Assembly (NCBI GenBank): GCA_045541795.1
Contig: JAZQJV010000003.1
Coordinates: forward strand, 1,623-65,622
DNA length: 64,000 bases
Source of the DNA: Patescibacteria group bacterium
GTDB lineage: Bacteria; Patescibacteriota; Microgenomatia; UBA1400; PJMF01
Direction of reading: 5' to 3'
Numbering within the stretch: position 1 is the stretch's first letter; each line of letters opens with the position of its first letter. The position numbers were made by a program, and so were the translations under genes. The notes below the pieces were generated by a model that saw nothing but the letters and a program-made list of their open reading frames with translations, was not told the origin of the DNA and did no database searches. Of the stretch, positions 1,159 through 62,859 are shown piece after piece.

Positions 1159-2973
1159 TCACATCTCCCTTTTCGCCGCCACACCCAGGCAGGCAAGCGC
1201 ATCTACGAGTACCGTCTGCGTGGCGGTGGCCGCCGCCATCATCAAGCGAGAGTGAGCAGGATCGGCCGTATCCAAGAGCTTGCGCGGCTGGCTCCAGAGA
1301 GCGTGGAAAGCGGCGGCCAGCTCATACAGGTAAGTGACTAAGATATACGGCGCGCGCTCGCGCGCACTCAGAGCGATGACACCCGGATACCGGGCGAGCG
1401 CGCGAGCCAGCGGCCGCAGTACAGTGAGTTCATCACTATCAGTGATCAGGAGTGCCGTATCGGCGGCCTGAAACTGGTAATCCTCACCAAAGAGTTTGCG
1501 GTACTGGCGAGACAATGAATACGTGCGCGTGGCGGCATACTGGATGTAATAGACCGGATTGTCACGGGAGCGCTCACGCACACGCACCAGATCAAAGGTC
1601 ATCGGTGTGTTGGCAGACTTCGTGAGGATGAAAAGTTTGAGTTCGTCTACGTCTACCTGGGCGAGGACATCGCGCAAAAGTAAAAAGTTGCCGGCTCTTT
1701 TGGACATTTTGTACGGCTGACCATCGCGCTCGAGACTGACGAGTTGCATCAACTGGACTTCTAGATGAGTGCGGCCGGACGAGAGCGCACTCACGGCCGC
1801 CTGTAGGCGGGCGACATAGCCGCCGTGGTCGGCGCCAAAAAGATTAAGGAGGACGGGGTAGCCACGGTGGATTTTGTCAAAGTGGTAAGCGATGTCACTG
1901 GCAAAATAAGTGGTAGTGCCGTCTGAGCGCGCCACCACGCGGTCACGGTCATCGCCGTAAGCGGTGGAGCGGAAAATGGTCTGAAGGCCGTCATCATGGC
2001 GTGATTTTTCTTCCTCAGCTTCATTGGCGGGACCACCTAGCGGCGCTTGTAGCTCACCCTGATACAAACAGGGTAACTGCCTGGTGATGCCGTCTTCATC
2101 CGTGACGGGACACGTCTGGCTGGCCAGCTGAGCCAAGGCCTGGCGCACGCTCCCCTGCTCCACGAGTGCTGTCTCAGACGTAAAACGGTCAAATTCTAGG
2201 CCGAGCAGGGTAAGGTCGGCGCGGATCTGATCGAGCATAGAGGCGACAGCTTCATCCTTGAAACGGGCAAAAAAACTGTCTTCATCCAGATCTGCAAACT
2301 GGTCGCCATACTGATCGTGCCAGGCGGCGGCCAGCGGCAGCAAGTAGTCGCCCGGATAGCAGCCCTCAGGGACATTTTGGCCCTGGTGGCGGCCGCAAGC
2401 TTGCTGGTAGCGGAATTGCAGCGAGCGCAGCAGCGTGCGGATCTGCACGCCGTAGTCATTGACATAATACTCCGTGGTGACGCGGTAGCCGGCTTTGGTG
2501 AGCAAGCGCGCGAGCGCGAGACCCAAGACGGCGCCACGCGTGTGGCCGATATGCAAGGGGCCGGTGGGGTTGGCAGAGATGAATTCTAGTAAAATGTCTG
2601 CTGGGGCGGCCGGGTCAGCATCTGGCGGTGGGACGGCCGGCGCACCAAAACGGCGACCAGCAGTGATGACGCCGGCAAAGAAATCAGCCCAAGCGGCAGG
2701 CGTGAAGGAAATATTGACGTAAGCGCCGGCGGGCGCGGCCGACTGGACAAAAGGGAGCGCGGTAAATTTCTCCGCTAAGTCGGCAGCGATCGCCTGTGGC
2801 GGCCGGTGCAAAGCGCCGGCCAAAACCATAGCGGCATTGGTGGCGTAGTCAGCGTCTAGGTGTGCGGGTGGCAGCGAAAAGCGGAGCTTGCTGGCGACCG
2901 ACTGGAAGTCGTCGCCAGCAAAATTGGCGATGACGGCCGTAAGGTCCCTCTGGGCGCGGGCAAAAATATCCAT
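1159..2973 (-). CDS. argS: arginine--tRNA ligase
   Basis: 604 aa with HIGH motif (PLHIGHTRGAVLG), KMSK motif (KMSKRAGNF), and an anticodon-binding C-terminal domain. Confidence 0.9.
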   Translation of the reverse strand: MDIFARAQRDLTAVIANFAGDDFQSVASKLRFSLPPAHLDADYATNAAMVLAGALHRPPQAIAADLAEKFTALPFVQSAAPAGAYVNISFTPAAWADFFAGVITAGRRFGAPAVPPPDADPAAPADILLEFISANPTGPLHIGHTRGAVLGLALARLLTKAGYRVTTEYYVNDYGVQIRTLLRSLQFRYQQACGRHQGQNVPEGCYPGDYLLPLAAAWHDQYGDQFADLDEDSFFARFKDEAVASMLDQIRADLTLLGLEFDRFTSETALVEQGSVRQALAQLASQTCPVTDEDGITRQLPCLYQGELQAPLGGPANEAEEEKSRHDDGLQTIFRSTAYGDDRDRVVARSDGTTTYFASDIAYHFDKIHRGYPVLLNLFGADHGGYVARLQAAVSALSSGRTHLEVQLMQLVSLERDGQPYKMSKRAGNFLLLRDVLAQVDVDELKLFILTKSANTPMTFDLVRVRERSRDNPVYYIQYAATRTYSLSRQYRKLFGEDYQFQAADTALLITDSDELTVLRPLARALARYPGVIALSARERAPYILVTYLYELAAAFHALWSQPRKLLDTADPAHSRLMMAAATATQTVLVDALACLGVAAKREM

Positions 2974-2982
2974 AATGTATTA

Positions 2983-3011
2983 ATTATACCACAAAACGGC
3001 CCTTTTGTCAA
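2983..3011 (-). promoter_or_regulatory. sigma70-type promoter for argS (TTGACA-17-TATAAT, TGTGG extended -10), 9 nt upstream of the ATG
   Basis: Minus-strand TTGACAAAAGGGCCGTTTTGTGGTATAAT. Near-identical to the elements at 7669 and 8603. Confidence 0.5.
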
Positions 3012-3035
3012 GAGGTAATTTCCAGATAAAAAACG

Positions 3036-4202
3036 TTATAGGCTCAGCAGGCTGTCGCCGGAGGTGGCCACACAAAGTTCGCTGTAGAGCCGCTGGAGGC
3101 GGGCGTAGTCACCACGCTGCAGGTAGCGGCCATCCACAAAACGGTCGAGCTGGCCGGCCCAGGAACCAGATTGGACGTAATATTCGGTGTCATGTAGGGC
3201 CTGCCGGCCAGCGTGCACACTGGAGCGGTAATTTTGCCCGACCCGTTTGCCGGCCTTGAGGCCGTAACGGGTGGCGATACCGCCCACAAAAGGAATGCCG
3301 TAGGCGGCGGGCTGCAAGATGGTCTTTTTGTGATTGAGCTGGAGGCACAAGTGGAGCCGCAAAAACTCGTCGATGGCGTCTCGGGCGGCCAAAAGCCGGT
3401 CTTTGTCTGGATCAAGCAGGATCATGTCATCCACATAGCGGCCGTAATACTTGATGCCGAGCACATCTTTGACGAAATGATCGAGTTCTCCCAGATAGAT
3501 ATTGGAAAAAAGTTGACTGGTGAGATTGCCGATGGGGAAGCCGCGGTCGTCTGGGACGCCAAAAAGTGTCTTGTAGGCAGGCAAATCATCCCAGCCGTGG
3601 AGGTCGCCGCGCATACAGACACGGTAGGTAGGTCGAGCGAGGATGATAATGGGCAGGAGGTAGCGGAGCAAATCCATCATTTCTGGTTTGATCCTAGATT
3701 TGGGATCGGTGTACATCCGCTCGATGATCTGGAGCATTTTGCCGTGATGGATGCTAGTGAAATAGCTCTGGATGTCGAGCTTGAGCATCCAGGCGGGGCG
3801 GGTGAAATTGTGCGTCACTCGCCGCTGGAACTCCATGGCGCGCTCCATAGCAAAATGCGTGCCTTTGCCATGGCGGCAAGAGTAAGAATCAAAAATGAAA
3901 TGCCGCTCCCAGTAGGGATTGATGGCGTCAAAAACTAAGTGATGGACCACGCGATCACGGAAGGTGGCAGCAAAAACTTCGCGCTTTTTGGGCTCGGTGA
4001 CGATAAAGGCAATACTGGGCCCCAGCTCGTAAGTACGCGCAGCCAGATCGCGGTAGAGAGTGTAGAGATTGCGCTCGAGGTCAAGCTCAAAAAGGAGCTG
4101 ATTGGCGGTGGAGCGCTTATGGCGGCGAGCCTCAAAATAAGCAGTAAAAAGACGGTCAAAAATCCACTCCTGTTCTAATCCTACGGGATGGTGAACAATC
4201 AT
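3036..4202 (-). CDS. diversity-generating retroelement (DGR) reverse transcriptase
   Basis: 388 aa with RT motifs including YVDDMILL. The motif-4 region reads GFPIGNLTSQLFSNIYL, carrying the DGR-specific I/LGxxxSQ in place of QGxxxSP. A TR/VR pair lies immediately upstream on the same strand. Confidence 0.85.
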   Translation of the reverse strand: MIVHHPVGLEQEWIFDRLFTAYFEARRHKRSTANQLLFELDLERNLYTLYRDLAARTYELGPSIAFIVTEPKKREVFAATFRDRVVHHLVFDAINPYWERHFIFDSYSCRHGKGTHFAMERAMEFQRRVTHNFTRPAWMLKLDIQSYFTSIHHGKMLQIIERMYTDPKSRIKPEMMDLLRYLLPIIILARPTYRVCMRGDLHGWDDLPAYKTLFGVPDDRGFPIGNLTSQLFSNIYLGELDHFVKDVLGIKYYGRYVDDMILLDPDKDRLLAARDAIDEFLRLHLCLQLNHKKTILQPAAYGIPFVGGIATRYGLKAGKRVGQNYRSSVHAGRQALHDTEYYVQSGSWAGQLDRFVDGRYLQRGDYARLQRLYSELCVATSGDSLLSL

Positions 4203-5197
4203 TGGTTTTCGCTATCTGATTCGAATTGATGATCGGTTTTATTTTGCCAAGCGGCGAGGCTCTCATCCACCAGTACTTTGTATTTCATGAGCGTCGCCAG
4301 GTTTTCTGCCCGGAAAGCGCCGCATTCATACGCCAGGCGTAGGAGGAAAGAGACGGTGGCCATATCATCCTGGAGGTTGGAGAGATGCCGCCTGGAGACG
4401 TACCAAGTGTGATCTTGATCAGCGTCATACAGACAGCGGAAATTGTTTTCCATATCTATGATGAGCTGTAAGATAGTGGGTTGGAGCGAGGCTTTGTAAG
4501 CATGCTGGAAATGATTGGTACGGATGAAGGCTTCTTTGAGAAATTGGAAGAGGTAATTATACGTCTCCACGTTGGCATAGATAGGCCGGAGCTTGGCGAC
4601 GTTGGAGTCTTGAGCGATACATTCTTGGGCGTACCAGCGCTGGTAAGCTTTATTGTCTATGGGCGGCAGGCCTTTGAGGACGAGGCCATAGCAGTCTCCT
4701 TTTTTACCTTCGATCAGCTCCCAGGTGGCGTTATTATCAAGCGCACGCTCAAAAACGGCAGGCAGCGAGGCGACAGGAATACCTACACGCAGCAGGCGCT
4801 CGTCTTTTTGTGGCGGCTTGTCGCCGCGTACGGTAAGCCCCGGGCGCAGCAGCGTCAGCATCCGGTAAGCGCTGACATTATACGCATTGAGAAAATCACC
4901 AGTCGTCCAGAGGTAGACTTCGTTTTTGTTCATGGATTCTGCTTTGTAGATGTATTGGAGGTCGGCCGGGATGACTTTGACGTCGAGCACCGGGAGGGTC
5001 ACGCCCTTAGCGATCAGACGCTCGTACGCATCGCGGGCGGTTTTATTCACTGGGATTTTGGGGGATTTGGGATCCGGCGAGGAGGGAAAAGTGGAAGCCT
5101 TAGAGGCTTTATCTGGCATGACTATCCTTTCTATAATAATTCTTATGCCTAATTTGTTTACTAGAAGAATTGATAGCCGCCAGATGCGAGACGGCAA
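4199..5197 (-). CDS. hypothetical protein, candidate DGR accessory factor (not Avd-like in size)
   Basis: The 332-aa ORF overlaps the RT start by 4 nt (ATGA coupling) and sits between TR and RT. No recognisable family. The true start may be an internal Met (M27). Confidence 0.45.
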   Translation of the reverse strand: MPSRIWRLSILLVNKLGIRIIIERIVMPDKASKASTFPSSPDPKSPKIPVNKTARDAYERLIAKGVTLPVLDVKVIPADLQYIYKAESMNKNEVYLWTTGDFLNAYNVSAYRMLTLLRPGLTVRGDKPPQKDERLLRVGIPVASLPAVFERALDNNATWELIEGKKGDCYGLVLKGLPPIDNKAYQRWYAQECIAQDSNVAKLRPIYANVETYNYLFQFLKEAFIRTNHFQHAYKASLQPTILQLIIDMENNFRCLYDADQDHTWYVSRRHLSNLQDDMATVSFLLRLAYECGAFRAENLATLMKYKVLVDESLAAWQNKTDHQFESDSENQ

Positions 5198-5228
5198 CTA
5201 GATAAGGAGTGCGGGCAGAATTAAATGT

Positions 5229-5412
5229 GTCTTGGAGGCAGCGCACCGAAAACCCGTTGTACTTATTGTTGTTGTTCTGCGGGTAGATATTACTAGAATT
5301 CAAGTTCAGGTTGTACGCGTTCGTCGTTGAGTTAAGAGAGCTAGACCACCAGTTGGCGTTCGAGCCTTGATTGTTCAGCGAGGAACCATTGGCGTTGCCT
5401 GAGATAGCAGAC
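5229..5412 (-). repeat. DGR template repeat (TR)
   Basis: 184 bp, identical to 6236..6419 except 16 positions. Every one is T on the plus strand (A on the coding strand) in TR. It encodes the N-rich (AAC) version of the VR peptide. Confidence 0.85.
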
Positions 5413-6219
5413 AGACTCCGGGAAACCTGGGCGAGCCGCACGGCCCAGCCAGCCGAAATCCCAACAACCTGGTGCCAGCCGGGTACACGGCTATGCTGCA
5501 GTTGATCGCTCACCCACGGGGAAGCAAAAGAAGAAAAAGAAGAAAAGAGGCAGTGACAAGTACACAGACCAACAGCCCGTGTACACACTGGTGTGGACTT
5601 ACGCGCGGATGGCATCCACCCGAACTTGTAGCGCAAGTAGATCAATAGACTCAATCCTTCATGAGCCGGCGTCAGATAACCGCCAAAAGGTCGCAGTCGG
5701 CCAAGCCGACCAGCGAGCCCGGGCCCGACTACCCGCTCCTTACCTAGTTGTACCTCTAACTTAAAGAGCCACCCAGCTGGCGCAGCCAGCGGATCGGATA
5801 GACCACCCGCCAGCTCGGCTGGGTGCCGTCTCATAACCGCTCCAGTATAGCAGACATGCTGGCTCTTGTCAAGAGTGAATTGGGAGGAGCTGGTTTTTGA
5901 TATAGTTTGTATCATTTGTCCTTTTTTGGGCGCGGCCTGCGGCGCTTAGCGCCGCAGGCCATTGCCCTGCATCTTAGAGAGTAGAAAGTTTAGCGTTGGC
6001 TAGTAGTAGTTCCTTCAGGTGCCCTACCGGGAACCCTCGGGTGTCTGGGGCTGGCGCCAGATGGACGTCGCTGGGGCGGGCCGCAATGCGTGCGGCCGCC
6101 GGAGAGCTCCTATCTGGCCTGCCGCCAGGAGTTACCTGATCTAAAGTGTTTGGTGGTAAAGTTTTTTGTTCTTTCATATTTACTTTCTTAGTGATCTGTT
6201 TGATATAGTTTGCCATAAA

Positions 6220-7455
6220 TTAATAGTCTTGGAGGCAGCGCACCGAAAACCCGTAGTACTTAGCGTTGTTGTTCTGCGGGTAGATATTACTAGAACCCAA
6301 GCCCAGGTTGTACGCGCCCGTCGTTGAGTTAAGAGAGCTAGACCACCAGAAGGCGCCCGAGCCTTGATAGTACAGCGAGGAACCATGGGCGTTGCCTGAG
6401 ATAGCAGACTTCCCCGAGGCATTCCAAGCATTGGCGCCGCTAGTCCTAAACCAATTCCATGACGTAGCACAATCGCTACTCGTACAACCATGACTCACAC
6501 TACTTCCTTGGACCGCGTCGGCCAATGCTTGGAATTCTTCTTTGGTGGGTACATGCCAACCAATGGGACAAATATCATGGGTGGCTTCAGTAGTCCCATT
6601 GGTACGGTTATTATATGTACCATTGTAATTGGCAGTGGAATTATTCATCGCCGCCTGCCAGTTATAAAGGAAACCGTCATAGTTACCGCCGTCGGCAGCA
6701 TTACGGCAGATACCGTAGTAGCCGGAGGCGACTTTGTTTTGGACGGAGCCTTGGTAGCTAGCATTGAAATCATTACCCGTGAGGCTGGCACAATTGCCAA
6801 ATTGGAGGTTTTGAGCCATCCAGCAGTGACCATCTATAAATTTGCGGATGATGTATTGCTTATTGTCACGGGCATCGGTGAGCGTGCCCACGGTGGTGTA
6901 GCCAGTGCGCGATGTGGGCGTGGCAAATTGAGCACAGGCTGCCTTGGTAAAAGATTGCATGGTGGAACCGATACAAGTACACTGCTCGGTGGCACTATTA
7001 TAGATATAGGCATCCGAGCAGTCACAGCCCACACCATTGCCGATGCATTTACTAGTGGTGGCGTCCCAGGTGCTATTGTCGCCACAGTAATTGGAGCCGG
7101 TACACTGTTGGGTGTAGGCATTGGCAGAGGTGAAGCATTTGGCGTAGGCATTGGGATAGGTGACGCCGTCGGGGCAAGCGGTGGTGGCGGCAGACGTCCA
7201 GGTGTTATCGGCCGTGCGGATGAGTTTTAGTTGGCCGCCAGTGGCGATCACAGAGGCGAGGTCGGTATCAATGAGTTTGCGGGTGGTAGTGGTAGAAGAG
7301 GCAGCGTGGGCGGTGGGAATCAACCCCTCCCCTCTGGCACTGCGTGCCACCTCCCCTCCGTAAGGGGAGGAGTTATAAGAAGTGGGGGCTATGAGGGCTC
7401 GCCCCCCCCCAACGCATTTTGGGCCACCCCAAGGATGGCGGCAAGCACCAGACAA
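6220..7455 (-). CDS. DGR target (variable) protein; Cys-rich N-region plus C-terminal FISUMP/Fib_succ_major domain (C-type lectin fold)
   Basis: Motifs HCWMAQNL, FLYNWQAA, ICPIGWHVPT, WWSSS, GFSVRCLQDY. The VR covers the last ~60 codons. The ORF as called starts at a TTG. An ATG plus signal peptide lies upstream in another frame. Confidence 0.8.
   Translation of the reverse strand: MSGACRHPWGGPKCVGGGRALIAPTSYNSSPYGGEVARSARGEGLIPTAHAASSTTTTRKLIDTDLASVIATGGQLKLIRTADNTWTSAATTACPDGVTYPNAYAKCFTSANAYTQQCTGSNYCGDNSTWDATTSKCIGNGVGCDCSDAYIYNSATEQCTCIGSTMQSFTKAACAQFATPTSRTGYTTVGTLTDARDNKQYIIRKFIDGHCWMAQNLQFGNCASLTGNDFNASYQGSVQNKVASGYYGICRNAADGGNYDGFLYNWQAAMNNSTANYNGTYNNRTNGTTEATHDICPIGWHVPTKEEFQALADAVQGSSVSHGCTSSDCATSWNWFRTSGANAWNASGKSAISGNAHGSSLYYQGSGAFWWSSSLNSTTGAYNLGLGSSNIYPQNNNAKYYGFSVRCLQDY
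6236..6419 (-). repeat. DGR variable repeat (VR) at the 3' end of the target gene
   Basis: Aligned with TR 5229..5412. Differences are A->N only: H/N, YY/NN, GAF/NAN, G/N, G/N, A/N, Y/N. Confidence 0.85.
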
Positions 7456-7514
7456 GTACCGGTGGCTATTGCCCGGTGTGAGTGTATGTTGTTTTTGTTT
7501 TTCATCTTTTTCAT
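7389..7514 (-). CDS. signal-peptide-encoding 5' segment of the DGR target gene, out of frame with the body in this assembly
   Basis: ATG at 7514 gives MKKMKNKNNIHSHRAIATGTCLVLAAILGVAQNALGGGEPS*. One extra G in the G9 tract would fuse it in frame to ...RALIAPTSYNSSPY of ORF 6220..7455. Confidence 0.4.
   Translation of the reverse strand: MKKMKNKNNIHSHRAIATGTCLVLAAILGVAQNALGGGEPS
7402..7410 (-). other. homopolymeric tract (C9 on plus strand, G9 on coding strand); candidate slipped-strand phase-variation site or homopolymer sequencing error
   Basis: Read directly at 7401-7410 as gccccccccc. With G10 the signal peptide and lectin body are in frame. Confidence 0.6.
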
Positions 7515-7605: not shown

Positions 7606-7668
7606 GGGGATCGCGGAGCTAAGATGAGATGGCGGGCGTTTGGGTGATTAGAGGCTGGATATTGCCTC

Positions 7669-7697
7669 TTGACAAAATGGTAGTTTTGTGGTATAAT
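7669..7697 (+). promoter_or_regulatory. consensus promoter TTGACAAAATGGTAGTTTTGTGGTATAAT with no downstream plus-strand gene
   Basis: Perfect -35/-10 with a 17-nt spacer. It is one member of a family of three near-identical 29-bp elements. It points antisense to the tRNA region. Confidence 0.45.
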
Positions 7698-7739
7698 GGG
7701 GTAAGTCCTTAGAGATTTGAGGACGGTTCTTATAAAAAT

Positions 7740-8507: not shown

Positions 8508-8543
8508 TGGCGGTGTCATCTTGGGGTTGTCCAGGATGGTGCC
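8508..8543 (+). repeat. 36-bp direct repeat, copy 1 (TGGCGGTGTCATCTTGGGGTTGTCCAGGATGGTGCC)
   Basis: Identical copy at 8657..8692. The two copies bracket the promoter at 8603..8631. Confidence 0.6.
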
Positions 8544-8602
8544 TGAATAACGCCAAACACATTTGAGACTGGAAAAGGAACTCAACTGGAATTTTTAATA
8601 TC

Positions 8603-8631
8603 TTGACAAAATGGCAGTTTTGTGATATAAT
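8603..8631 (+). promoter_or_regulatory. consensus promoter TTGACAAAATGGCAGTTTTGTGATATAAT driving ORF 8717
   Basis: TTGACA-17-TATAAT. The spacer contains the inverted repeat ACAAAA/TTTTGT. Confidence 0.6.
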
Positions 8632-8656: not shown

Positions 8657-8692
8657 TGGCGGTGTCATCTTGGGGTTGTCCAGGATGGTGCC
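8657..8692 (+). repeat. 36-bp direct repeat, copy 2, in the 5' UTR of ORF 8717
   Basis: Identical to 8508..8543. Confidence 0.6.
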
Positions 8693-10115: not shown

Positions 10116-13100
10116 ATGACAACAGAAGGAGCCAGATTATCAGCACAGGATCTAGGATTACCAGGTTGGAATTACGATCCCGAGCTGTCTAGACATGATG
10201 TTTTAACGGATACCGAATTGACTGAGGCATATGATGACAATGAGCGCCATGACGAAATAAATAAACTACGAAGTACGTACGAGCGTATCACTCATGAGTA
10301 TCAGCAGGATGGCGATACCGAGCTTTTGCTATCAGAGCTAAAGGTCCTATCTGCCTCAGCAGAGAAATTAACTAAAAAGTACCGTGAGCAGCGCATGGCA
10401 ATTTTGAAGAGCACTGAAAAAGACCCGGATGAAGTTTCACTTGCTTCTGCTCATTTAGCTTTCACAGCGATAAAGGATGTACATGACCTCACGGATAAAA
10501 TCAACGGGATCGTGGACACCGTCAGCGGCGAGGCAACAGCGCAAAAAGCGCCACTGGGATCGGAAACGAGGGCCGCTGGCGAGCCGACCAAGACAGAGCA
10601 GGCAGAGCCGGAAGTAAAACCGGCGGCAGAATCAACGCCAGAAGAAAAGCCGGCCGACAATGATACCGCCAAAACCGAGACTCAGCAAGAGAGCAAACCG
10701 GCCGAGAAGGAAGAACGGCCGCAAGAAAAACAAGAGGAAAAACCGGAAGAAAAGCTACCTTTCCAGCCAGAGCAAGTGAAGGTAAAAGGTGCAGACGGCA
10801 AAGAAAGACTGCTCAAACCTGAAGAGTTGGCTTGGTGGCAACCCGGCAAGACAGTAGAATGTATCAGTGGCTGGGATAAAATCGGCAGTGTGGCCGACGG
10901 CGGAATAGATAACGGCAGTCATATGTTCCGACTAGATAGCGGGACAGGACAGCTGATACTGCGCACGGCAGACGTGCCACCTACAGACAATGATAGCGTG
11001 GTGGATGAGCGTTTCCGCCCGCGGCGATTGGGAGAGATAAAAGAAATACAGGTACTCACGAGCGAGTGGAGCCAGACCAAGCAAGACGAGGCCGCACGGC
11101 GAAATGAGTATGAAGTGCTAGTCCGGACAAAAGACGGACGGGAATACCGTTTTGTGAGTACAGACAGCGAGATGTCACGTGAGCAAGCGCGAGTGGCTTA
11201 TGAGCAAGAGCAACAGGAGCAGCGTCAGGCCGCCCAGGCGCGAGAAGAAGAGCGGACTAAAGCTATCGAAGGCCACGAAAAAGAGCTGGCGATGGCGGAG
11301 CTTTTGGGGATCAAGGAAGATCTACACCAGATCAGCGAGGCGGCCACTATCGGCCTGCGTGACGACGGCAGCAACCGGCTGGATGAGAACAGTTTTGACA
11401 GTCTCCACCGAGAAATCCGCCGGAGCGTACTCACCAGGCGTCTGGAGACAGTGACAGCCATGCTAGAAGGTGGCGCGAGCGAGGACGAGCGGCGGGAGCT
11501 GGTAGCCGAGCAGGCGGCAATCCGTGAAGAGTTAAGTAAACTCAATGCTGCCGGGACGGCGCTAGAATTTGGTGAAATCAAAGATAAAAACGGGAAATTG
11601 ATCCTGAAGGCACGCGAGTACCAAAATTACCGTGAAGCGCTCAAAGGGGAAATCAAGGCCAGATCTACCCAACTAGAGCGTTACGCCGAGCGCGCCAACA
11701 AAAAAGATGGCCTCAAACCGCATGAGAGGTACGCTTTTGAGGAAGCACGCAAGGCTCTGGATGAGGCGATCGCCGTACAGCTAGAATATGAAGCCATAGC
11801 CGAGTATGATAGTTACCAGGCGCGGATAAATGCTATCAGCGAGGCGACGATCACTTACAAAGGTAGTGATAATAAAGACGTGACGGTGGATTTGCGCTCA
11901 GACGAAAAGAGCAAAAACGGAGAGATTTTATCTTTGCAGGGCAAACTTGCCGAGCTGGGTGACCAGATCGCGGCGGCGCAAGATTTCATCACTCGGATAG
12001 AGCAAAACCCTAATGCCCGTTATGACAAGCAGACGGTGGCAGAGGTAAAAGAAAAACGAGAACTGATCAAAGCCAAAAACAAGCAAGCTGAGCAAATCCG
12101 TGAAGTAATGCGCCAGCTGGAAGAAAAAGCCAGGAATTTGATGACTTTGCGTCAGGTCTTTTACCTACAAGCGCACGGTCGGGTGGAAGAAGAAGATGCC
12201 GCTCGCAGTGAGATGGGTATCGCTTATGACGTGACCAACGGCAATAATGAGTTTTTTAGCTATGCACTCACGGTGGCTTTAGGCAGCAGCGGTATCCAGG
12301 AGCAGTTAAAAGACTCTACGCTCAATGCAGACGGCCTGGCAGACATTTTGATCGGCCGGATGACACAAATTCATGACGACGCCGAGCGAGAATCCTCCCG
12401 TGGCAGCGGTATCGCTCGGGCGGTAAACTCTTTGCGGATGCTGAGTTTGTCTAGTACTTTCATTGATAAGGCTTACTACGGGATCGCAGGCAACGATGGC
12501 GTTTTTTCCAATAAACTCACTAGTGAGATGCTCATGATGTCTGGCGCGCAGCTGCTGCAAGCCAAGCGCAAGGCGCTAGAAGCCGTGCGCTACCGGGCGG
12601 GAGATTATGGTAGCACCAGCATAGACGATCAAGAAAATGCGCGCTGGCAAAAATTGAGAGCGGCCGAGGAAAATTGGGCAGCGAAAGACGCTGGCTTGAT
12701 GCCCAGAGTGATGGCCGCCGAGGATAATCTTGCTGAGCAAGACAGGAAACATCCGGCGGGATATAAGATCACGGCTGAGATACCGGTGGGTTATGAGTCC
12801 ATAGACCAAGCGATCGCCAGAGATGAGAATGCCCAGCGTGGTCAACAGCGCCGACGGGAAGCAGTAGGGCAGGCCAAGGGACAGCTAGACGACACGGTGG
12901 CGAGCCGGCTGGAGGACTTGCAGCCATACCGGGCAGAAGTCGATAGATACCGGGAAGATGTTTTCGCCAAGTATGACCGGTTGATGAGCGAGTGGGAGAC
13001 GGAAAAGAAGGCACTGAAAGCACAGGTAGACGCCAAGCAGACAGAAATCCAGGGTCTACTCAAGCAAAAGCAAGCACTGGAGGATGAGCGGAGACGTCGG

Positions 13101-15569
13101 CTTTTCCAGCTGGATCAACGGGCAGCCGCTGCCAGTGGTGAAAGTTTGCGCGAGATACAGGATGACCGGGCAGAAGTGATCACCGAGTACTCCGGCGGAC
13201 TAGAGGAAATAAACGAAAAACTGGCGACAACGTACCAAGAGTTGACCGCTCTACAGCCGGAAAAACTGGAAAGTGATGTCAGTTTCCAGGATTGGTTGGC
13301 AGAAAAAGGAATGCAACTTGATGCCGAAGAACTGGAAATTTTGCAGCCGTACTTAGACAAGATGGCCGAGGCCAACCGAGCATTCCAGACGCAGCGGAAA
13401 TTTGTGTCTCAAGTGAAATCCACGTGGCTTTTTACCGTGGTGGGGTCTTTTAACAACAGCAAGATGAGCTTGACGGCGGGTACCAATGAAATGGGTGGCT
13501 TTTTTGGCCGGCTAGATCAGACGAGCCACTTACGGCCAGACGGCGTGTCTAATCCAGAGGTGATGGAGGCAAATGATCTGTGGAATAAAAACTTTGGCAC
13601 GGGGAAGTTTGACGCTGAGGCGCAGCGTTACTTGGGAGAAAATGGGGACTTACAGCGGATAGTAGCAATGTGTGTACAGGAGCTGCGCAACCCGCGGAGT
13701 AAATACTGGGCGGGCAATAGTGACCTGAGTCAGAGTGACGGCGTGCGCAAGCTGGTGGATGAGATGTTTGACACGTACTGCAATACTGAGGGCCGGGAGA
13801 CGATCGGCAAGATGAGTAAGGAGCAGCGAGAGTTTGATAAGCAGCTGGTACTGATAAAAATTGCACGTGATGACTTGGTGCGTAAATACGCCGTGGAGGC
13901 TTACGGCGTGTGGTTTACCGCCCTGAAAAACAAGCAGTGGGACAAGCTGACGCATAGCGGCGTGCTGATGGCACTGACGTATGGACTGGTGAGGGGGAAA
14001 AATGGCAGCATGCGGGCGATGTTGGATTTTATAGATCTGGATGAGATCACGGCTAAAATACAGGCGCAAATAGATAAGTATTATCCGGAGGGCGATCCAG
14101 AAGAAGAAAGGCAATATCGCGGGCTTCAAGAAAAAATCGAGACGGAAGAGTTGATTATGCGCGAAGAAATGCGCAAGAATAATGAAGCCGGCCGCTTGCA
14201 GGCGGAAGAAAGAATTAGTAAGTTGCGCCGGAGTGTCGGAGACTTAGGAAAACGGTACGATCAGATGTCATCACTGGATCTATTGAAGGCGAGAGTACAG
14301 AGACACAAACTTTATTTAGATGCTGCCTTCCCCCATGGAACTTTAGATGAACGTGCTCAAATACGCCAGCAAGCCGTCGATACGAAACGCGAAAATGACG
14401 CAATTATACGTAGAGAACTAGAAAAATCTCAAGAAAACAAGCCTGGCTTAATGAGGAGGATATGGCGGGTGTTTGTTGGCAGCGAGAATCAGCCATCTGT
14501 ACGGGAAGAAACTGTAAAATATCAGTATACCTTTTCGGAAGAGGATTATATAAATACTTTCCTGAAATCTGGGGACGTGGAACTTACTGATCAGCAAATT
14601 CGCGAATTGGTACAGCGAGCCAGAGAACGTGGGGATATAGTTGACGGCCAAACTACCAGATCATCCACTGACTCAAATGGGACAACGAAAACTGAAGTAG
14701 TTGGCTCGCAAACAGTTGAATTTAAACCAATTAAACTCAATCTTAAAGCTGATTATTCATTTAAACCGAGGAAATTTAGTGATGATGCCCCTACAATGGA
14801 TGCTTACCTCAATCAACCTCCAGAAGGCAGGCAAGCAGCCGCCGATTGGCTCGATGCTCATGACGCTTTTGGCGAGATCATCGCTATGTGCAGCAGTCCG
14901 ATAGACAAAGGCTTGATAGAAGACCCGGAAAAACTGGTGGAAGCGATCAATAAGATCAATACCAATTTCTCACGGATTGCCTCGATCGCCCTAGATAATA
15001 GTGATGCTAATATTGCAGGTTTGCCTGGATCGGACGTAAAATATAACTACATGCGCGAAATGGCGGAGGCAGCATATTGCGGCTGGATAGAGAATGTGTT
15101 GCACACAGTTGGTGGGGCGCATCCCAGGCGTTTAATTGATGATGAAGGGATGCCAACCGATAGCAATAAAAAGTACGTCAGAGATTTTAATTCGATCCTA
15201 GCCGCTGTAAGGAGTTCTTTAGGCGACTTGGGTAGCAATTCGAGGAATAAATCAATTTATAACGAGAAAATTCATGCAATCCTAGATCTGAACTCTAAAT
15301 ATTATATGGGTCCAGAACAAGATATATATGAGCCAGATCCTTATGGGGAAGCTGCGTACGCATTCAGATATAAGGATTTTGTGGATGGTAATTTATTGCA
15401 ATATCTAGTAATGGACGTCGGTAAAAAAGTTGGTTATGCTGACTCTCATGGTACTTTGTTTGCGAAATGGAATGAACAAAGTAAGAGGATGGAATTGATA
15501 CCAGGTATGAGAATGCCAGATGAAATCTTACAGGTACTGAGAGAACCACTTACAGATTCTGATGGCTAA
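10116..15569 (+). CDS. giant acidic coiled-coil protein (1817 aa), hypothetical
   Basis: A single uninterrupted ORF. The N-terminus is E/K/P-rich with low complexity, followed by extensive heptad-like segments. No signal peptide or TM segment. Confidence 0.6.
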   Translation: MTTEGARLSAQDLGLPGWNYDPELSRHDVLTDTELTEAYDDNERHDEINKLRSTYERITHEYQQDGDTELLLSELKVLSASAEKLTKKYREQRMAILKSTEKDPDEVSLASAHLAFTAIKDVHDLTDKINGIVDTVSGEATAQKAPLGSETRAAGEPTKTEQAEPEVKPAAESTPEEKPADNDTAKTETQQESKPAEKEERPQEKQEEKPEEKLPFQPEQVKVKGADGKERLLKPEELAWWQPGKTVECISGWDKIGSVADGGIDNGSHMFRLDSGTGQLILRTADVPPTDNDSVVDERFRPRRLGEIKEIQVLTSEWSQTKQDEAARRNEYEVLVRTKDGREYRFVSTDSEMSREQARVAYEQEQQEQRQAAQAREEERTKAIEGHEKELAMAELLGIKEDLHQISEAATIGLRDDGSNRLDENSFDSLHREIRRSVLTRRLETVTAMLEGGASEDERRELVAEQAAIREELSKLNAAGTALEFGEIKDKNGKLILKAREYQNYREALKGEIKARSTQLERYAERANKKDGLKPHERYAFEEARKALDEAIAVQLEYEAIAEYDSYQARINAISEATITYKGSDNKDVTVDLRSDEKSKNGEILSLQGKLAELGDQIAAAQDFITRIEQNPNARYDKQTVAEVKEKRELIKAKNKQAEQIREVMRQLEEKARNLMTLRQVFYLQAHGRVEEEDAARSEMGIAYDVTNGNNEFFSYALTVALGSSGIQEQLKDSTLNADGLADILIGRMTQIHDDAERESSRGSGIARAVNSLRMLSLSSTFIDKAYYGIAGNDGVFSNKLTSEMLMMSGAQLLQAKRKALEAVRYRAGDYGSTSIDDQENARWQKLRAAEENWAAKDAGLMPRVMAAEDNLAEQDRKHPAGYKITAEIPVGYESIDQAIARDENAQRGQQRRREAVGQAKGQLDDTVASRLEDLQPYRAEVDRYREDVFAKYDRLMSEWETEKKALKAQVDAKQTEIQGLLKQKQALEDERRRRLFQLDQRAAAASGESLREIQDDRAEVITEYSGGLEEINEKLATTYQELTALQPEKLESDVSFQDWLAEKGMQLDAEELEILQPYLDKMAEANRAFQTQRKFVSQVKSTWLFTVVGSFNNSKMSLTAGTNEMGGFFGRLDQTSHLRPDGVSNPEVMEANDLWNKNFGTGKFDAEAQRYLGENGDLQRIVAMCVQELRNPRSKYWAGNSDLSQSDGVRKLVDEMFDTYCNTEGRETIGKMSKEQREFDKQLVLIKIARDDLVRKYAVEAYGVWFTALKNKQWDKLTHSGVLMALTYGLVRGKNGSMRAMLDFIDLDEITAKIQAQIDKYYPEGDPEEERQYRGLQEKIETEELIMREEMRKNNEAGRLQAEERISKLRRSVGDLGKRYDQMSSLDLLKARVQRHKLYLDAAFPHGTLDERAQIRQQAVDTKRENDAIIRRELEKSQENKPGLMRRIWRVFVGSENQPSVREETVKYQYTFSEEDYINTFLKSGDVELTDQQIRELVQRARERGDIVDGQTTRSSTDSNGTTKTEVVGSQTVEFKPIKLNLKADYSFKPRKFSDDAPTMDAYLNQPPEGRQAAADWLDAHDAFGEIIAMCSSPIDKGLIEDPEKLVEAINKINTNFSRIASIALDNSDANIAGLPGSDVKYNYMREMAEAAYCGWIENVLHTVGGAHPRRLIDDEGMPTDSNKKYVRDFNSILAAVRSSLGDLGSNSRNKSIYNEKIHAILDLNSKYYMGPEQDIYEPDPYGEAAYAFRYKDFVDGNLLQYLVMDVGKKVGYADSHGTLFAKWNEQSKRMELIPGMRMPDEILQVLREPLTDSDG

Positions 15570-24770: not shown

Positions 24771-24832
24771 GTTTACAAAAGTAGGTAAAAATAGTAAGTT
24801 TTGTAAATAGAAATGGAATTTGGTTACAAAAA
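24771..24832 (+). repeat. 62-bp direct repeat, copy 1 (GTTTACAAAAGTAGGTAAAAATAGTAAGTTTTGTAAATAGAAATGGAATTTGGTTACAAAAA)
   Basis: Exact second copy at 26106..26167. The pair flanks the AAA ATPase gene and its promoter. Confidence 0.7.
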
Positions 24833-24833
24833 C

Positions 24834-24862
24834 TTGACATTTTCCCGCGGCCGTGTTATAAT
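24834..24862 (+). promoter_or_regulatory. promoter TTGACA-17-TATAAT for the AAA ATPase gene (leaderless, 7 nt to ATG)
   Basis: cTTGACAttttcccgcggccgtgtTATAATtacatatATG. Confidence 0.55.
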
Positions 24863-24869
24863 TACATAT

Positions 24870-26090
24870 ATGAAAATAATTGAAAGACATTATTTGCGTG
24901 AGCTACTAGCGGTACTGCATACTCCCGATATTAAAGTGATTACTGGCGTGCGGCGGGCGGGTAAATCCACGCTTTTGCAACAGTTGACTGAGCACATTAT
25001 CCACAATATCCCTCAGAGTAACTTGATCCATATCAACTATAATCTTCACGATTTTTATCATTTGCGCGACCACGAGTCAGCGTATGCGTATATCAGCGAG
25101 CGTCTGCGGCCCAGCCTGGAAAATTACGTATTGATTGATGAAGTACAGATGTGTGACGGCTTTGAGTGGGTGATTAACAGCTTACATGCTAGCGGCAGGT
25201 GTCACATCGTGATCACAGGCTCAAATGCCTTTCTTGAACACACTGATTTAGGCACGCTTTTTGTGGGGCGGATTTATTCTCTCCAGATGTACCCGTTTTC
25301 TTTTCGTGAATATTGCCGGTATTTTCCTCGCCTTTATATTGATGATGCTTGGGATCGATATTTGCGTGATGGCGGCTTTGCTGGTAGCTATGAGTATCCA
25401 AATAGTGAGCAAAAAAGTACTTATGTCCGTGATGTTTTCCGGACGTTAATTGTCCGTGACATCGTGGGAAAATATAAAATCAAAGATGAAGCAATGTTGC
25501 AACAACTGATTGACTTTTTAGCCGACAATATCGGCAATATCACCTCCGCCAATAAGATTGCCAACGTTTTGAATGCCTCTGGAGTGGATACCAATCACAA
25601 TACCGTCAACGCCTACCTAGACTATTTGTGCCGGAGTTTTGCCTTTTACCGGGTGCGCCGGTATGACATCAAGGGTAAGGATTATCTGCGCTCTCAAGAC
25701 AAATATTACCTAGTAGATCCAAGTTTTCGCACAGCGCGTCTAGGTAATCGTTTCCCAGATTATGGATTGGTTTTTGAAAACATCGTCGCGATAGAACTTC
25801 TGCGGCGCGGCTGGGAGTTATATGTGGGTGTGGTCAGCAGCAAAGATCTGGAAATAGATTTTGTGGCCAGAAAGGCTGACCGCGAGCTTTATATCCAAGT
25901 AAGCGATGATATATCTCGAGACGAGACGCTAAATCGGGAACTGAGTTCGCTACAAGCCGTAAAGAATAACCACCCGAAGATCATTTTGGCCCGGACGAGG
26001 GCAGACGCTGGCACGAGAGACGGCATTATCATTGCCGATCTGGCGCGCACACTCGCCAATCCCCATGCCTTTGATGAGCTAAAATTGTAA
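24870..26090 (+). CDS. AAA+ ATPase, DUF4143 family
   Basis: Walker A GVRRAGKST, Walker B VLIDEVQ, then ITGS...LGTLFVGRIYSLQMYPFSFRE (DUF4143). The ORF 24813 is trimmed to MKIIERH. Confidence 0.75.
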   Translation: MKIIERHYLRELLAVLHTPDIKVITGVRRAGKSTLLQQLTEHIIHNIPQSNLIHINYNLHDFYHLRDHESAYAYISERLRPSLENYVLIDEVQMCDGFEWVINSLHASGRCHIVITGSNAFLEHTDLGTLFVGRIYSLQMYPFSFREYCRYFPRLYIDDAWDRYLRDGGFAGSYEYPNSEQKSTYVRDVFRTLIVRDIVGKYKIKDEAMLQQLIDFLADNIGNITSANKIANVLNASGVDTNHNTVNAYLDYLCRSFAFYRVRRYDIKGKDYLRSQDKYYLVDPSFRTARLGNRFPDYGLVFENIVAIELLRRGWELYVGVVSSKDLEIDFVARKADRELYIQVSDDISRDETLNRELSSLQAVKNNHPKIILARTRADAGTRDGIIIADLARTLANPHAFDELKL

Positions 26091-26744: not shown

Positions 26745-28889
26745 ATGTTTAAATTATTTAAGAAAAACGAAGAGAACAAGCAAGAAGCACCAAAACGGTT
26801 TTTTAGTGTCTTGATGGCGCCAAATCTAGTGCAAGCGGCAATGTGGGAAGCGGCAGACATCGTGAAAGTGCTGGCCAAGTCCCCTACTCGGCCGTATTTT
26901 AATGATAATGACCTACTCGTAAAACTTGACCAGTGTTTGCAGGATCTAGGGCCTGACGGCGAAAGCGTGCACCAGACACTTTTTCACTTAGATAGTTCGT
27001 TTTTGTTGGGCGACGACCTCACGCCAGACGCCAAAAACCTTTTCCAGCGGATCACGGAGCAGCTGCAGCTAGAGTCGCTCGGATTTGTGACCAATACCGA
27101 AAGTGTGGTCAATGCCAAACTAGAAATGACGCCAGAGCTGACCCGCCAGCTGGTGGTGGAATTCACGCCGTCCAAGACAAATTTTGCTCTTTTTGAAGGG
27201 AAAAGTCTGATCGAAACGGTGAGTATGCCGGCGGAGGGGAATTTCGCCGAGCAGACCAAGAGTGTTCTCGTGCAATTGGCCGGTAAAATTGGTGCTGATT
27301 ATACGGCATTTTTTGAGGTAAATGATCAAATTCCGTCTACTTCACCTGCTGAGCCTTTGGTAATGGATTTGGTCTCTGGACAGATCACGAGTGAAGAAAT
27401 CCAGACTAAATTAAACATGCTGCCGGCCAATCTGCCGCTCAAGGCAGAAGTGCTCGGGAGTGAGATTTTGCTGTCTTTTATATTGTTGCCCAGCGCCACA
27501 ATCATTGCTACTTCTTACGGCTGGATCAAGCCGCCGGCGAGCGAGCCTGAAACTCCTCCGGCGAGCACACCGCCGGCAGAAGCGGTGGCGGCCGAGCCGA
27601 TACCGGTACTCTCGCGCCAAAAGGGCGCAAGCAAGGCGATCGTGCCGCAAGTAGATGCGGGAGATTTTGCGATCGAGACGAAGTCCCCAAAACCAAAAAA
27701 ACCGATGTCTCACGGCGCCAAAATGGGACTTTTGGTGTTGATTTTGATCATCGTGATGATAGCGGCCACTGGTTTGATTTTTTGGTGGCTGGTACAGGCT
27801 GGCGAAGCCACCGTAAGCGTCAGTGCCAAACACGACTTCCTCACCAAGACGCTGGAAGTCAGCATCGATCCTGAGGCCAAGGAAGCCGACTATGAGAAGT
27901 CCATCTTGCCAGGCACGGTCAAAGTGGGTAACCTAGAGGTTAGCATCGAGTACCCCACCACGGGCACAAAAAACGTGGGCGAAAAGGCGCAGGGAAAGGT
28001 GAAAATCTATAATAGGACAGAAAAAGAGCAGAAAATTGCTGCAGGCACTGAATTAGAAAACGGCGTGGTAAGTTTTGTGACAAAGGATGAAATTACAGTG
28101 AAGGCTGCCGAAAAAGGTAAGGAAATAAATGGTCAAAAAGTGGATGTGTTAGGTGAAGCTGAGGTCGATGTAATTGCATCAACTGTGGGAACAGCCGGAA
28201 ACATTAAAAAAGAGACATCGTTGCGTGTAGGCTCTGCGAATAAAGAAGAATTATATGCCGAAGCTAAGGAAGACTTTACCGGCGGTACTGACAAGACAAT
28301 CAAGGTCTTTTCCAAAGAAGACAAAGAAGCCGCCCTCAAGCTCGCCGAGGAAGAACTGGCGGCATCGGCGGCCGAGCAGATAGACGAGAAAAAGGGTAAA
28401 GTTTACCAGGTACCGCAGCTGGATGAAATGGAAATTACCTCTAGCGAATTTGACAAGGACGTAGATGAGGAAACAGAAACAGTTCTTTTGACCATGAAAG
28501 GCACGGTGCCGGTGATCTCCTTCACTCAAGACGACTTCAAGCCGCTGGCGCAGGCCACGATCGAAAAACTGTTGCCTGAAGGTTATGAGCTAGAAGGCGA
28601 GCTAGAGTTGCTGTCAACTCTAGACGACAAAAAAACTGCCCGCGGCAACGGCCAAATTTACGTAAAACTAGACCTTACTCAAAAGACCGTCAGCAGCGTC
28701 AACGTGGACGAGATCAAAGCGGCGCTTTTGGGCCAGAACTTGGCTAAGGTGGCCAATATCTTAGACCGGTATGAGGGCATAGACAGCTATAAGGTGGACT
28801 GGAACAGTCAGCTGACCCCCACGATCACCCACTCCATGCCGAGCAAGGCCAGCAAGCTTAAGGTAAATCTGGTGGAAAGCATCGAATAA
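26745..28889 (+). CDS. hypothetical single-pass membrane protein (N-in, large C-terminal exo-domain), upstream of the sortase gene
   Basis: 714 aa. A TM helix MGLLVLILIIVMIAATGLIFWWLV occurs near residue 330. The A/P/E-rich linker lies upstream of that TM. Confidence 0.5.
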   Translation: MFKLFKKNEENKQEAPKRFFSVLMAPNLVQAAMWEAADIVKVLAKSPTRPYFNDNDLLVKLDQCLQDLGPDGESVHQTLFHLDSSFLLGDDLTPDAKNLFQRITEQLQLESLGFVTNTESVVNAKLEMTPELTRQLVVEFTPSKTNFALFEGKSLIETVSMPAEGNFAEQTKSVLVQLAGKIGADYTAFFEVNDQIPSTSPAEPLVMDLVSGQITSEEIQTKLNMLPANLPLKAEVLGSEILLSFILLPSATIIATSYGWIKPPASEPETPPASTPPAEAVAAEPIPVLSRQKGASKAIVPQVDAGDFAIETKSPKPKKPMSHGAKMGLLVLILIIVMIAATGLIFWWLVQAGEATVSVSAKHDFLTKTLEVSIDPEAKEADYEKSILPGTVKVGNLEVSIEYPTTGTKNVGEKAQGKVKIYNRTEKEQKIAAGTELENGVVSFVTKDEITVKAAEKGKEINGQKVDVLGEAEVDVIASTVGTAGNIKKETSLRVGSANKEELYAEAKEDFTGGTDKTIKVFSKEDKEAALKLAEEELAASAAEQIDEKKGKVYQVPQLDEMEITSSEFDKDVDEETETVLLTMKGTVPVISFTQDDFKPLAQATIEKLLPEGYELEGELELLSTLDDKKTARGNGQIYVKLDLTQKTVSSVNVDEIKAALLGQNLAKVANILDRYEGIDSYKVDWNSQLTPTITHSMPSKASKLKVNLVESIE

Positions 28890-28899
28890 GGAGGCGGGC

Positions 28900-29640
28900 G
28901 TGAGTGAGGTGGCAAAAAAACCCGGGGCAAACTGGCCGCTTTACTTACTCATGAGTGCAGGGCTGGGGTTGATATTGCTAGCCGGCGTACCTTTTGCCCG
29001 GGGATGGTGGCAACAAATACTGGATTCACAGGCGGAAAACATCGTCTACCCGCTAGAGATGAATGAGTTTTGGGCGCGAGTGGAAGCCAACCCCAAAATC
29101 ATCGCGGACATTGACGCCGTGACGGCGAAAGCGCCCACAATCGTGGACGAGATCGACTACGGCAACATCGAAAACTGGTTTAGTGACGGGAAATTCCACG
29201 CGCAAAAGCAGACGTCGCAAAGCTATACGCTTGACATAGAAAAGCTCGGTATAAAAAATGCCCTCGTAAAGGTGGGCGGTACAAATATTGATCACAATTT
29301 GGTACAATTTAATACCGACCGGACGATCGGCGATTATGGAGCGCCGGTGATTTTTGGTCACAGCATGCTGCGGCAGTTTTATAATCCCAAGGAAACCAAT
29401 AAAGAGCGATACAAAGGTATTTTCTCCACTATCATGACACTGGAGACGGGAGATGAGATCAAAATCACCATTGCTGGCGTGACGTACACTTTCTTGGTGA
29501 CGGAAAAAAAGGAAGTCAAGCCTGACGATGATTATATCATGAGTCAGGATGTAAGCAAAAAACAAATTAAATTGGTGACGTGCACGCCCGAAGGCACGAG
29601 GCTGCGGCGCGGAGTAATCACGGCAGAGCTAAAAAGTTGA
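28900..29640 (+). CDS. sortase-family transpeptidase
   Basis: His in APVIFGHSML, Cys in KLVTCTPEG (TLxTC-like), Arg in RLRRGV, and an N-terminal membrane anchor. Confidence 0.7.
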   Translation: MSEVAKKPGANWPLYLLMSAGLGLILLAGVPFARGWWQQILDSQAENIVYPLEMNEFWARVEANPKIIADIDAVTAKAPTIVDEIDYGNIENWFSDGKFHAQKQTSQSYTLDIEKLGIKNALVKVGGTNIDHNLVQFNTDRTIGDYGAPVIFGHSMLRQFYNPKETNKERYKGIFSTIMTLETGDEIKITIAGVTYTFLVTEKKEVKPDDDYIMSQDVSKKQIKLVTCTPEGTRLRRGVITAELKS

Positions 29641-49816: not shown

Positions 49817-49930
49817 CTATGCGCCTTATTATAACATGGAAATGGGGCGTGTGGAGTAGGAAAATGAAGGCGGGTGAAAATCACGTTTTGGCCGATTCCT
49901 CTCCCCGCCCCACCCGAAGTTATAGTCCTT

Positions 49931-50025
49931 GGTGGAGGTGGCGGCGTGGGCGGCAGGAATCACCCCCTCCTCTCTGGTACTGCGTGCCTCCTCCCCTTTG
50001 TAAGGGGAGGAGTTATGTGAGGATT
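49931..50025 (-). repeat. ~95-bp diverged copy of the 5' coding region of the DGR target gene (7281..7384), including the stem-loop CCTCCCCT..GTAAGGGGAGG
   Basis: About 85% nt identity. Its translation NSSPYKGEEARSTREEGVIPAAHAATST aligns with NSSPYGGEVARSARGEGLIPTAHAASST of the target. Confidence 0.5.
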
Positions 50026-51261: not shown

Positions 51262-51269
51262 GAGGGCGA

Positions 51270-51298
51270 TTATAGCACGACTGAGGCTTGTTGTCAAG
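51270..51298 (-). promoter_or_regulatory. promoter TTGACA-17-TATAAT, 7 nt upstream of the ATPase ATG
   Basis: Minus strand TTGACAacaagcctcagtcgtgcTATAATcgccctcATG. Confidence 0.5.
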
Positions 51299-60618: not shown

Positions 60619-60660
60619 AAAAAAGTGTGGTATAATAGGCTGTCTTAGTTAGAAGGACAT

Positions 60661-61023: not shown

Positions 61024-61037
61024 GTACATCCACGCCT

Positions 61038-61136: not shown

Positions 61137-61145
61137 TTATCTGGT

Positions 61146-61216: not shown

Positions 61217-61253
61217 ACCAGGCGTGGGGAAAATTCTCATATTTCAAATAATA

Positions 61254-62852: not shown

Positions 62853-62859
62853 ATGGTGA

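Follow-up and report, generated by a model that had tools for sequence, protein, structure and literature searches.

Diversity-generating retroelements (DGRs) are widely catalogued, and the DGR of Bordetella phage BPP-1 serves here as a reference for how their parts are arranged, with the order mtd-avd-TR-brt (TR, template repeat). The Avd protein of this phage element oligomerizes and holds the reverse transcriptase (RT) and the RNA. Msl (MutS-domain-I-like) is another DGR accessory factor, noted since 2018 and without known function, that occurs in 16 DGRs as a protein of 112-283 aa and always together with a separate avd gene (PMC5758913). DGRs with separate Msl and Avd proteins constitute architecture D (PMC5758913), and are also represented by Bacteroides DGRs (bioRxiv 10.1101/2024.11.15.621889) and by the DGR of Paludibacter sp. 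221 (locus L012; related loci are designated here by such numbers). Herein we analyze a DGR in a 64,000-nucleotide stretch of the genome of a Patescibacteria group bacterium (contig JAZQJV010000003.1; hereafter the window), wherein profile comparisons indicate that Msl and Avd are joined in a single polypeptide. All coordinates are positions in the window, and the coding strand of the DGR cassette is the minus strand.

The window element departs from the BPP-1 arrangement in its order, which is target-TR-accessory-RT, and in its location, which is chromosomal rather than on a phage. Its target is a FISUMP protein instead of Mtd, and its Avd is fused to an Msl domain, whereas the Avd of BPP-1 is unfused. 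Architecture D and the Paludibacter locus come closer, because the same two modules are present, msl precedes avd in L012 just as the Msl domain precedes the Avd domain in the fusion, the target is of a FISUMP-like class, and the RTs are related (42% identity to the L012 RT). However, L012 encodes an Msl of 171 aa and an Avd of 114 aa upstream of its target, whereas the window encodes one 306-aa polypeptide between TR and RT. Unlike the small stand-alone Msl proteins described to date with their separate avd genes, the window Msl is part of a larger protein, and no other Msl- or Avd-like open reading frame (ORF) is found within the 64 kb.

An accessory gene between TR and RT is the commonest arrangement in the Candidate Phyla Radiation (CPR) set of Wu et al., called architecture B3 or TR-(avd)-RT (PMC5758913). 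The B3 avd is a stand-alone gene on the reverse strand, whereas the window gene is on the same strand as the RT gene, is probably translationally coupled to it, and carries an Msl domain. The gene order, which the initial annotation of this DNA had called unusual, is therefore not so: it has CPR precedent, and seven related loci have the fusion directly upstream of RT. The target likewise belongs to a known class, category 'd' or CLec2, which is defined by a DUF1566, DUF823 or Fib_succ_major match, a C-terminal variable repeat (VR), and a secreted or surface location (PMC5758913). The Legionella pneumophila DGR (LdtA) has a target of this same class, but differs from the window in accessory content and gene order. 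Another DGR with a FISUMP target would be routine, and the kind of system, the target class and the gene order are all known. The novelty lies in the joining of Msl and Avd in one accessory protein, and in the small clade in which this protein occurs; no description of the fused form was found in the literature searched.

An accessory protein with Msl and Avd domains

The initial annotation listed a 332-aa ORF upstream of the RT gene and left it unidentified. This ORF exists as the longest frame, beginning at TTG 5197, but the protein is more likely to be 306 aa in length from ATG 5119, judging from the gene call of a strain variant (L001), which begins at the equivalent ATG, and from an AAGGA sequence located 6 nt upstream. 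The strain variant, which is 98% identical, is the only match returned by a word-indexed search with the accessory ORF. An exhaustive HMMER search of 1.84 billion cluster representatives (E<=0.001) gives 16 hits, from which two proteins of 1,075 and 2,312 aa that match only short stretches of the query were set aside. The 14 remaining relatives were aligned with the window protein to form a family of 15.

The profile of this family matches both of the separate accessory proteins of L012, where msl and avd are two adjacent small genes with msl first. Specifically, hhalign comparisons match the N-terminal domain to the stand-alone Paludibacter Msl of 171 aa (probability 96.9%, E=1.9e-10) and the C-terminal domain to the 114-aa bAvd protein (probability 97.6%, E=3.5e-12). 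The L012 Msl gene (L012:165-680) in turn passes the Pfam MutS_I model with 23.4 bits against a cutoff of 20.6. A 209-aa gene of L012 was also considered as the Msl, but it exhibits no similarity. On the strength of these matches to both L012 genes, the window ORF is a fusion of an N-terminal Msl and a C-terminal Avd, in the order of the separate genes.

Comparisons to MutS itself point in the same direction. The alignment of the family profile with residues 19-89 of E. coli MutS has the expected register (hhalign, E=0.006; the comparison sequence agrees with PDB 1e3m), and 5 of the 15 family members match MutS_I, the best with E=0.0074. In the hhalign register, the position equivalent to Phe36 of the MutS Phe-X-Glu motif is aromatic in all 15. 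A structure model built from the family alignment (predicted local distance difference test score, pLDDT, of 84) has an alpha/beta N-terminal part followed by a C-terminal four-helix bundle, and Foldseek matches this model to MutS 3k0s_A with a probability of 0.92. The modeled bundle conforms to the form of Avd, which is a four-helix bundle of about 110-130 aa. Searching the family profile against PDB sequences yields no significant match. A basic N-terminal tail of about 50 aa is present only in a long-form subclade that includes the window protein.

The fusion family is rare, with a single ORF containing both domains in L001 and in 13 further representatives from independent samples. A genome-collection scan with the window RT gives no match, and one with an alignment recovers only two loci. 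The family gene is immediately upstream of the RT gene, usually overlapping it, in L001, L002, L003, L004, L006/L007, L009, L010 and L011. In L002, L003, L006, L009 and L010, the sequence upstream of the fusion gene also contains a VR-TR pair, and wherever context is visible the fusion gene is positioned between TR and RT. The RTs of loci that carry the fusion are 46-60% identical to the window RT and are among its closest relatives.

Some of these loci have features of their own. L011 carries two tandem FISUMP targets (358-2055 and 2285-3667), and a clear VR-TR match is evident only in the second (3476-3684 versus 4065-4271). The independent metagenomic contigs of L002, L003 and L009 each start within the 3' constant part of the VR (4-49, 1-39 and 1-25, respectively). 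Such starts fit assembly breaks at a hypervariable region, but the TR/VR repeat explains them equally well.

Repeats, reverse transcriptase, target and leader

Table 1. Components of the window DGR cassette, with positions in the 64,000-nt window
Feature	Position	Strand	Remarks
DGR reverse transcriptase	3036-4202	-	388 aa; Pfam RVT_1 56 bits
Accessory gene, Msl-Avd fusion (by profile match)	4199-5119	-	306 aa from ATG 5119 (probable start)
Msl (MutS-domain-I-like) domain, predicted	4580-4957	-	about fusion residues 55-180
Avd-like four-helix bundle, predicted	4220-4579	-	about fusion residues 181-300
Spacer between TR and accessory gene	5120-5228	-	109 nt; no ORF, no Rfam match
TR	5229-5412	-	53 A, 17 in-frame AAY codons
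Leader upstream of TR	5413-5838	-	putative transcribed 5' part of DGR RNA
Sigma-70-type promoter, candidate	5844-5872	-	TTGACA-17 nt-TATACT, TG extension; 11/12 consensus positions
VR	6226-6409	-	codes for last ~61 target residues; 3' constant part 6226-6254 resembles an initiation of mutagenic homing (IMH) site
Target gene, FISUMP/Fib_succ_major protein	6220-7455	-	longest ORF from TTG 7455
Signal-peptide-like ORF (MKKMKNKNNIHSHRAIATGTCLVLAAILGVAQNA...)	7389-7514	-	41 codons from ATG 7514

The window element is a genuine DGR, with adenine-specific differences between TR and VR, a DGR-type RT and a FISUMP target. Pairwise alignment bears out the earlier claim of a 184-bp repeat with 16 mismatches that all fall on TR adenines. 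The two copies form a gap-free direct repeat with 91% identity, and each of the 16 mismatches is an A on the minus strand of TR (T on the plus strand) that is opposed by G, C or T in VR. Given the 53 adenines among 184 nt, the chance that 16 of 16 random mismatches would fall on A is 3.5e-10 (hypergeometric). A re-alignment looking for mismatches at non-A template positions found none, as the copies are identical at 131/131 of them. TR is located where the initial annotation had placed it, whereas its VR coordinates of 6236-6419 are 10 nt too high.

The 16 changes occur at codon positions 1 or 2 in 10 of the 17 in-frame Asn codons of TR, converting them in VR to H, Y, Y, G, F, G, G, G, A and Y. 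Substitutions of Asn had been recognized in the initial annotation, except that the codons are AAC or AAT rather than AAC only, and that the list of residues was one G short. The 3'-terminal 29 nt of the repeats, which are partly GC-rich and include 4 A, are unchanged, and divergence begins right after them, such that TR-VR homology stops one codon short of the target stop codon (6220-6222). No third repeat copy, extra VR or remote target is present within the 64-kb window.

The same relationship between repeats is seen in related loci. All 16 of the TR/VR mismatches in L006 and 21 of the 23 in L010 are at TR adenines. The TRs of the window and L006 differ at 34 positions at which neither has A, and each VR follows its own TR at 34/34 of these, which at the level of sequence shows TR-to-VR information flow within the clade. 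The window TR is also 89% identical to that of L002 over 173 nt, although the L002 RT is only 60% identical.

Both motifs that led to the initial description of a DGR-type RT are located in the protein, with IGNLTSQ at residues 224-230 and YVDD at residues 256-259, and by its sequence the enzyme carries the motif-4 [I/L]GxxxSQ and the YxDD of the DGR clade. Its best match among solved structures is the Bordetella phage DGR RT (bRT, 8ub7_A, E=8.7e-32), with a retron-type RT as runner-up (E=5e-9), and it matches PHROG 1423 with E=2.8e-87. Models for group II intron, retron, and Drt/defence RTs give scores far under their cutoffs. The ATG of the RT gene overlaps the stop codon of the accessory gene (ATGA), which suggests translational coupling between the two.

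The target was proposed to be a FISUMP protein with a C-terminal VR, and the evidence agrees. Its ORF contains the motifs ICPIGWHVPT, FLYNWQAA, WWSSS and GFSVRC, and it exceeds the thresholds of both Pfam Fib_succ_major (PF09603; 73.8 bits, cutoff 33.9) and TIGR02145 (90.3, cutoff 41.65). A lectin fold is predicted for this protein. In the public collection the gene is called from GTG 7350, giving 376 aa (6220-7350).

An 87-nt repeat provides the Shine-Dalgarno-like sequence before this GTG. One copy (7290-7376) is in the 5' part of the target ORF and the other (49930-50016) is intergenic, upstream of guaB. The copies are 86% identical and carry a hairpin (CCTCCCCT-N5-AGGGGAGG), and the repeat looks like a small palindromic repeat element.

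The stretch of about 0.8 kb between target and TR had been described as noncoding. It does not appear to encode protein, yet a promoter close to the consensus and a highly conserved leader are located in it, and it probably contains the 5' part of the DGR RNA. A promoter at the equivalent place in L002 (331-359) likewise agrees with the consensus at 11 of 12 positions. Relative to L001, the region 5413-5940 has 3 mismatches in 528 nt (0.57%) compared to 2.2-2.7% in both genes (binomial P=0.001), such that the leader has diverged about four times less between these strains than the coding genes have. The window and L002 also have short collinear leader blocks in common, which are not present in more distant loci. 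The leader fold is modestly more stable than those of shuffled sequences, with a minimum free energy z-score of -2.35. Long ORFs cross leader and TR in the window, L002 and L003, and a protein-coding leader was therefore considered, but the translations do not align outside TR. No Rfam family matches the window at the gathering threshold, nor the region 5000-6300 at E<=1. The spacer downstream of TR differs from that of L001 by 1 mismatch in 106 nt. Its location is that of the Sp region in the Bordetella phage DGR RNA, and it may have a role in priming.

The segment between the target stop and the DGR promoter is bracketed by an exact 14-nt direct repeat (TTTGATATAGTTTG) at 5896-5909 and 6199-6212. 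About 0.1 such matches are expected by chance in 7 kb. The bracketed 303 bp include a perfect 12-bp GC hairpin (5934-5960) and may be an insertion footprint.

Proposed mechanism and alternative interpretations

Taken as a whole, it is highly probable that this locus is a chromosomal DGR that uses a single transcript, its RT and an Msl-Avd fusion protein to rewrite VR. In this scheme, the promoter at 5872-5844 (minus strand) would drive one transcript composed of a leader of ~430 nt, TR, the 109-nt spacer and the genes for the accessory protein and RT. These two proteins would assemble on this transcript, and TR would be copied to cDNA with random bases placed opposite template adenines. The cDNA would then replace VR at the 3' end of the FISUMP target gene, such that, on the ligand-binding face, as many as 17 Asn codons (AAY) could be randomized without a stop codon ever arising. 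A single accessory protein would unite the Avd four-helix bundle with the N-terminal Msl domain, and the fusion would thereby tether a mismatch-binding-like module to the RT particle. This module could act on the heavily mismatched duplex of cDNA and VR, one possibility being that it protects this duplex from mismatch repair by the host. Transcript structure, leader role and Msl function are the parts of this scheme that we infer.

A number of observations weigh against parts of this scheme. The window accessory protein scores only 13.7 bits with MutS_I, below the Pfam threshold of 20.6, and the position equivalent to Glu38 of the Phe-X-Glu motif is not Glu in any of the 15 family members. The Avd domain of the window protein is acidic (isoelectric point, pI, of 5.2), whereas most other family members have values of 8-9.7 and typical Avd proteins are basic with a mean pI of about 9.5 (PMC5758913). 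The transcript start and leader function rest on a consensus match and a two-strain comparison. VR variants were also sought in the public collections, without a hit: two VR variant patterns, one of 112 nt in which every A is replaced by N and one covering a 30-nt core, give 0 matches in metagenome contigs, the core pattern gives 0 matches in viral contigs, and the target protein, as called from GTG 7350, is recorded as the sole member of its cluster. The signal-peptide ORF that begins at ATG 7514 is, as assembled, out of frame with the target body. Lastly, a hairpin of the BPP-1 type is not found by VR, as 6080-6260 (within ~140 nt downstream) holds no GC-rich inverted repeat of >=7 nt; the nearest inverted repeat is the 12-bp hairpin noted above, ~265 nt downstream of VR. 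A GC-rich inverted repeat just past the IMH is found in about 34% of DGRs, and is hence not obligatory.

The frame break requires particular consideration. The junction of the two target frames is a C9 tract at 7402-7410 (G9 on the coding strand), and one added G would produce a single ORF from ATG 7514. The homologous targets of L010 and L011 lack such a homopolymer and begin with normal signal peptides at the N-terminus. Possible explanations of the break are an assembly error, a phase-variable switch and a pseudogene. The target may be off in this genome, or the tract length may be in error. The tract, which lies between signal peptide and target body, may act as a slipped-strand on/off switch that is layered over hypervariation. 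Regardless, because of the frameshift the surface export of the window target is uncertain, and the description of the DGR as complete needs qualifying: the signal-peptide start that forms the outer boundary (ATG 7514) is frameshifted as assembled.

This break raises the alternative that the element is a relic, which diversified its target in the past and is now inactive, with its target off or pseudogenized by the C9 frameshift. The out-of-frame signal peptide, the 87-nt repeat element inside the 5' part of the target gene (also found in an intergenic region), and the failure to find VR variants in the public collections scanned would all be in keeping with such a fate. However, assemblies commonly miscount a 9-nt homopolymer by one base, and both the RT ORF and the accessory ORF are intact, with the catalytic motifs retained. 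Relative to L001, the RT gene has 22 synonymous and 9 non-synonymous changes and the accessory gene 14 and 6, respectively, for a rough dN/dS of about 0.14, which shows at the sequence level that both genes are under purifying selection. Moreover, the perfect identity of TR and VR at every non-A position argues for recent homing. We consider a relic unlikely, and present-day activity of the DGR appears to be the better inference from these sequences.

A second alternative is that the ORF between TR and RT is an unrelated passenger, or represents two genes that were mis-joined in assembly. In favor of this possibility, the window protein alone passes no Pfam or NCBIfam threshold, and its single-sequence AlphaFold model is unusable (pLDDT 39). 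Mis-joining is difficult to reconcile with the recurrence of the two-domain ORF in L001 and in 13 representatives from independent samples. A passenger would also not be expected to abut RT always, as the family gene does where context is known, nor to match stand-alone Msl and Avd proteins, both with 97% probability. Thus, this interpretation is very improbable. Least plausible is that TR and VR are paralogous fragments shaped by normal mutation or gene conversion with an unrelated RT nearby: TR does lie within a long open frame (5109-5915) whose TR part scores as Fib_succ_major, but the frame upstream of TR is not conserved as protein between loci, the window RT groups with DGR RTs, the one-sided A pattern recurs in L006 and L010, and the strand- and copy-specific bias of 16/16 differences (P=3.5e-10) effectively refutes the idea.

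Returning to the interpretation of the locus as a DGR that employs a fused accessory protein, the fusion bears on how Msl functions. Because it is conserved in a small RT clade and appears to be translationally coupled to RT, the natural fusion provides evidence of the 'Rosetta-stone' kind that Msl and Avd work together in one complex. In Bacteroides, retrohoming is reduced 5- to 10-fold by host MutS, and Msl has been recognized as an accessory factor of DGRs (bioRxiv 10.1101/2024.11.15.621889; PMC5758913). We tentatively propose, as a possibility that we hold with some doubt, that the RT-Avd-RNA particle physically includes the MutS-like module, and that this module binds the A-mutagenized heteroduplex to hide it from repair or to guide integration. 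If the Avd domain oligomerizes as in the Bordetella phage, then cDNA would be synthesized in the midst of several mismatch-binding-like domains. If true, the entry of cDNA into VR and its escape from repair, which is the least understood step of retrohoming, would become testable with one two-domain protein. The fusion and RT would also constitute a compact two-gene system for reconstitution and for the engineering of DGR-based mutagenesis.

Genomic setting and neighboring features

The DGR cassette resides between argS and a tRNA-Ile gene, and there is no discontinuity in GC content at the locus. The window also carries dnaA, dnaN, guaA, guaB, pgk, a split transketolase, a sortase and two giant ORFs. 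The genes dnaN (plus strand) and dnaA (minus strand) are divergent (59503-62888), and the window probably includes the chromosomal origin region. Their presence confirms that the DGR is chromosomal. No DGR is present at the locus of the nearest ArgRS relative. The closest named ArgRS sequences, with 56-59% identity, carry no label beyond '[bacterium]', and those of Clostridia MAGs are less than 50% identical. L001 is 97.8% identical over the cassette and has an extra insert of ~800 bp between RT and argS (L001 2959-3774), which contains a Gp49/HigB-like gene and a 165-aa partner that are likely to be a toxin-antitoxin pair.

The whole cassette is bracketed by a 43-nt inverted repeat (2983-3025 and 7655-7697) whose arms are 88% complementary. 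Each arm is a perfect TTGACA-17-TATAAT promoter that points outward; argS is driven by one of them, and a terminator-like hairpin (7705-7724) comes directly after the other. A third copy of this promoter element occurs at 8601-8631, and is flanked by a perfect 36-nt direct repeat (8508-8543 and 8657-8692, 149 nt apart). Because conservation among the copies spans the promoter spacer, they represent a repeated element and not mere matches to the consensus.

No Pfam family matches either of the two giant ORFs, which are of 4574 aa (30132-43856, minus strand) and 1817 aa (10116-15569, plus strand), at E<=0.001. The larger adjoins the sortase gene (28900-29640) and a gene for a Baseplate_J-like protein (26745-28889). 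Finally, the 64 kb contain three paralogous genes for AAA_14/DUF4143 ATPases, located at 15-1154, 24813-26090 and 50065-51297.

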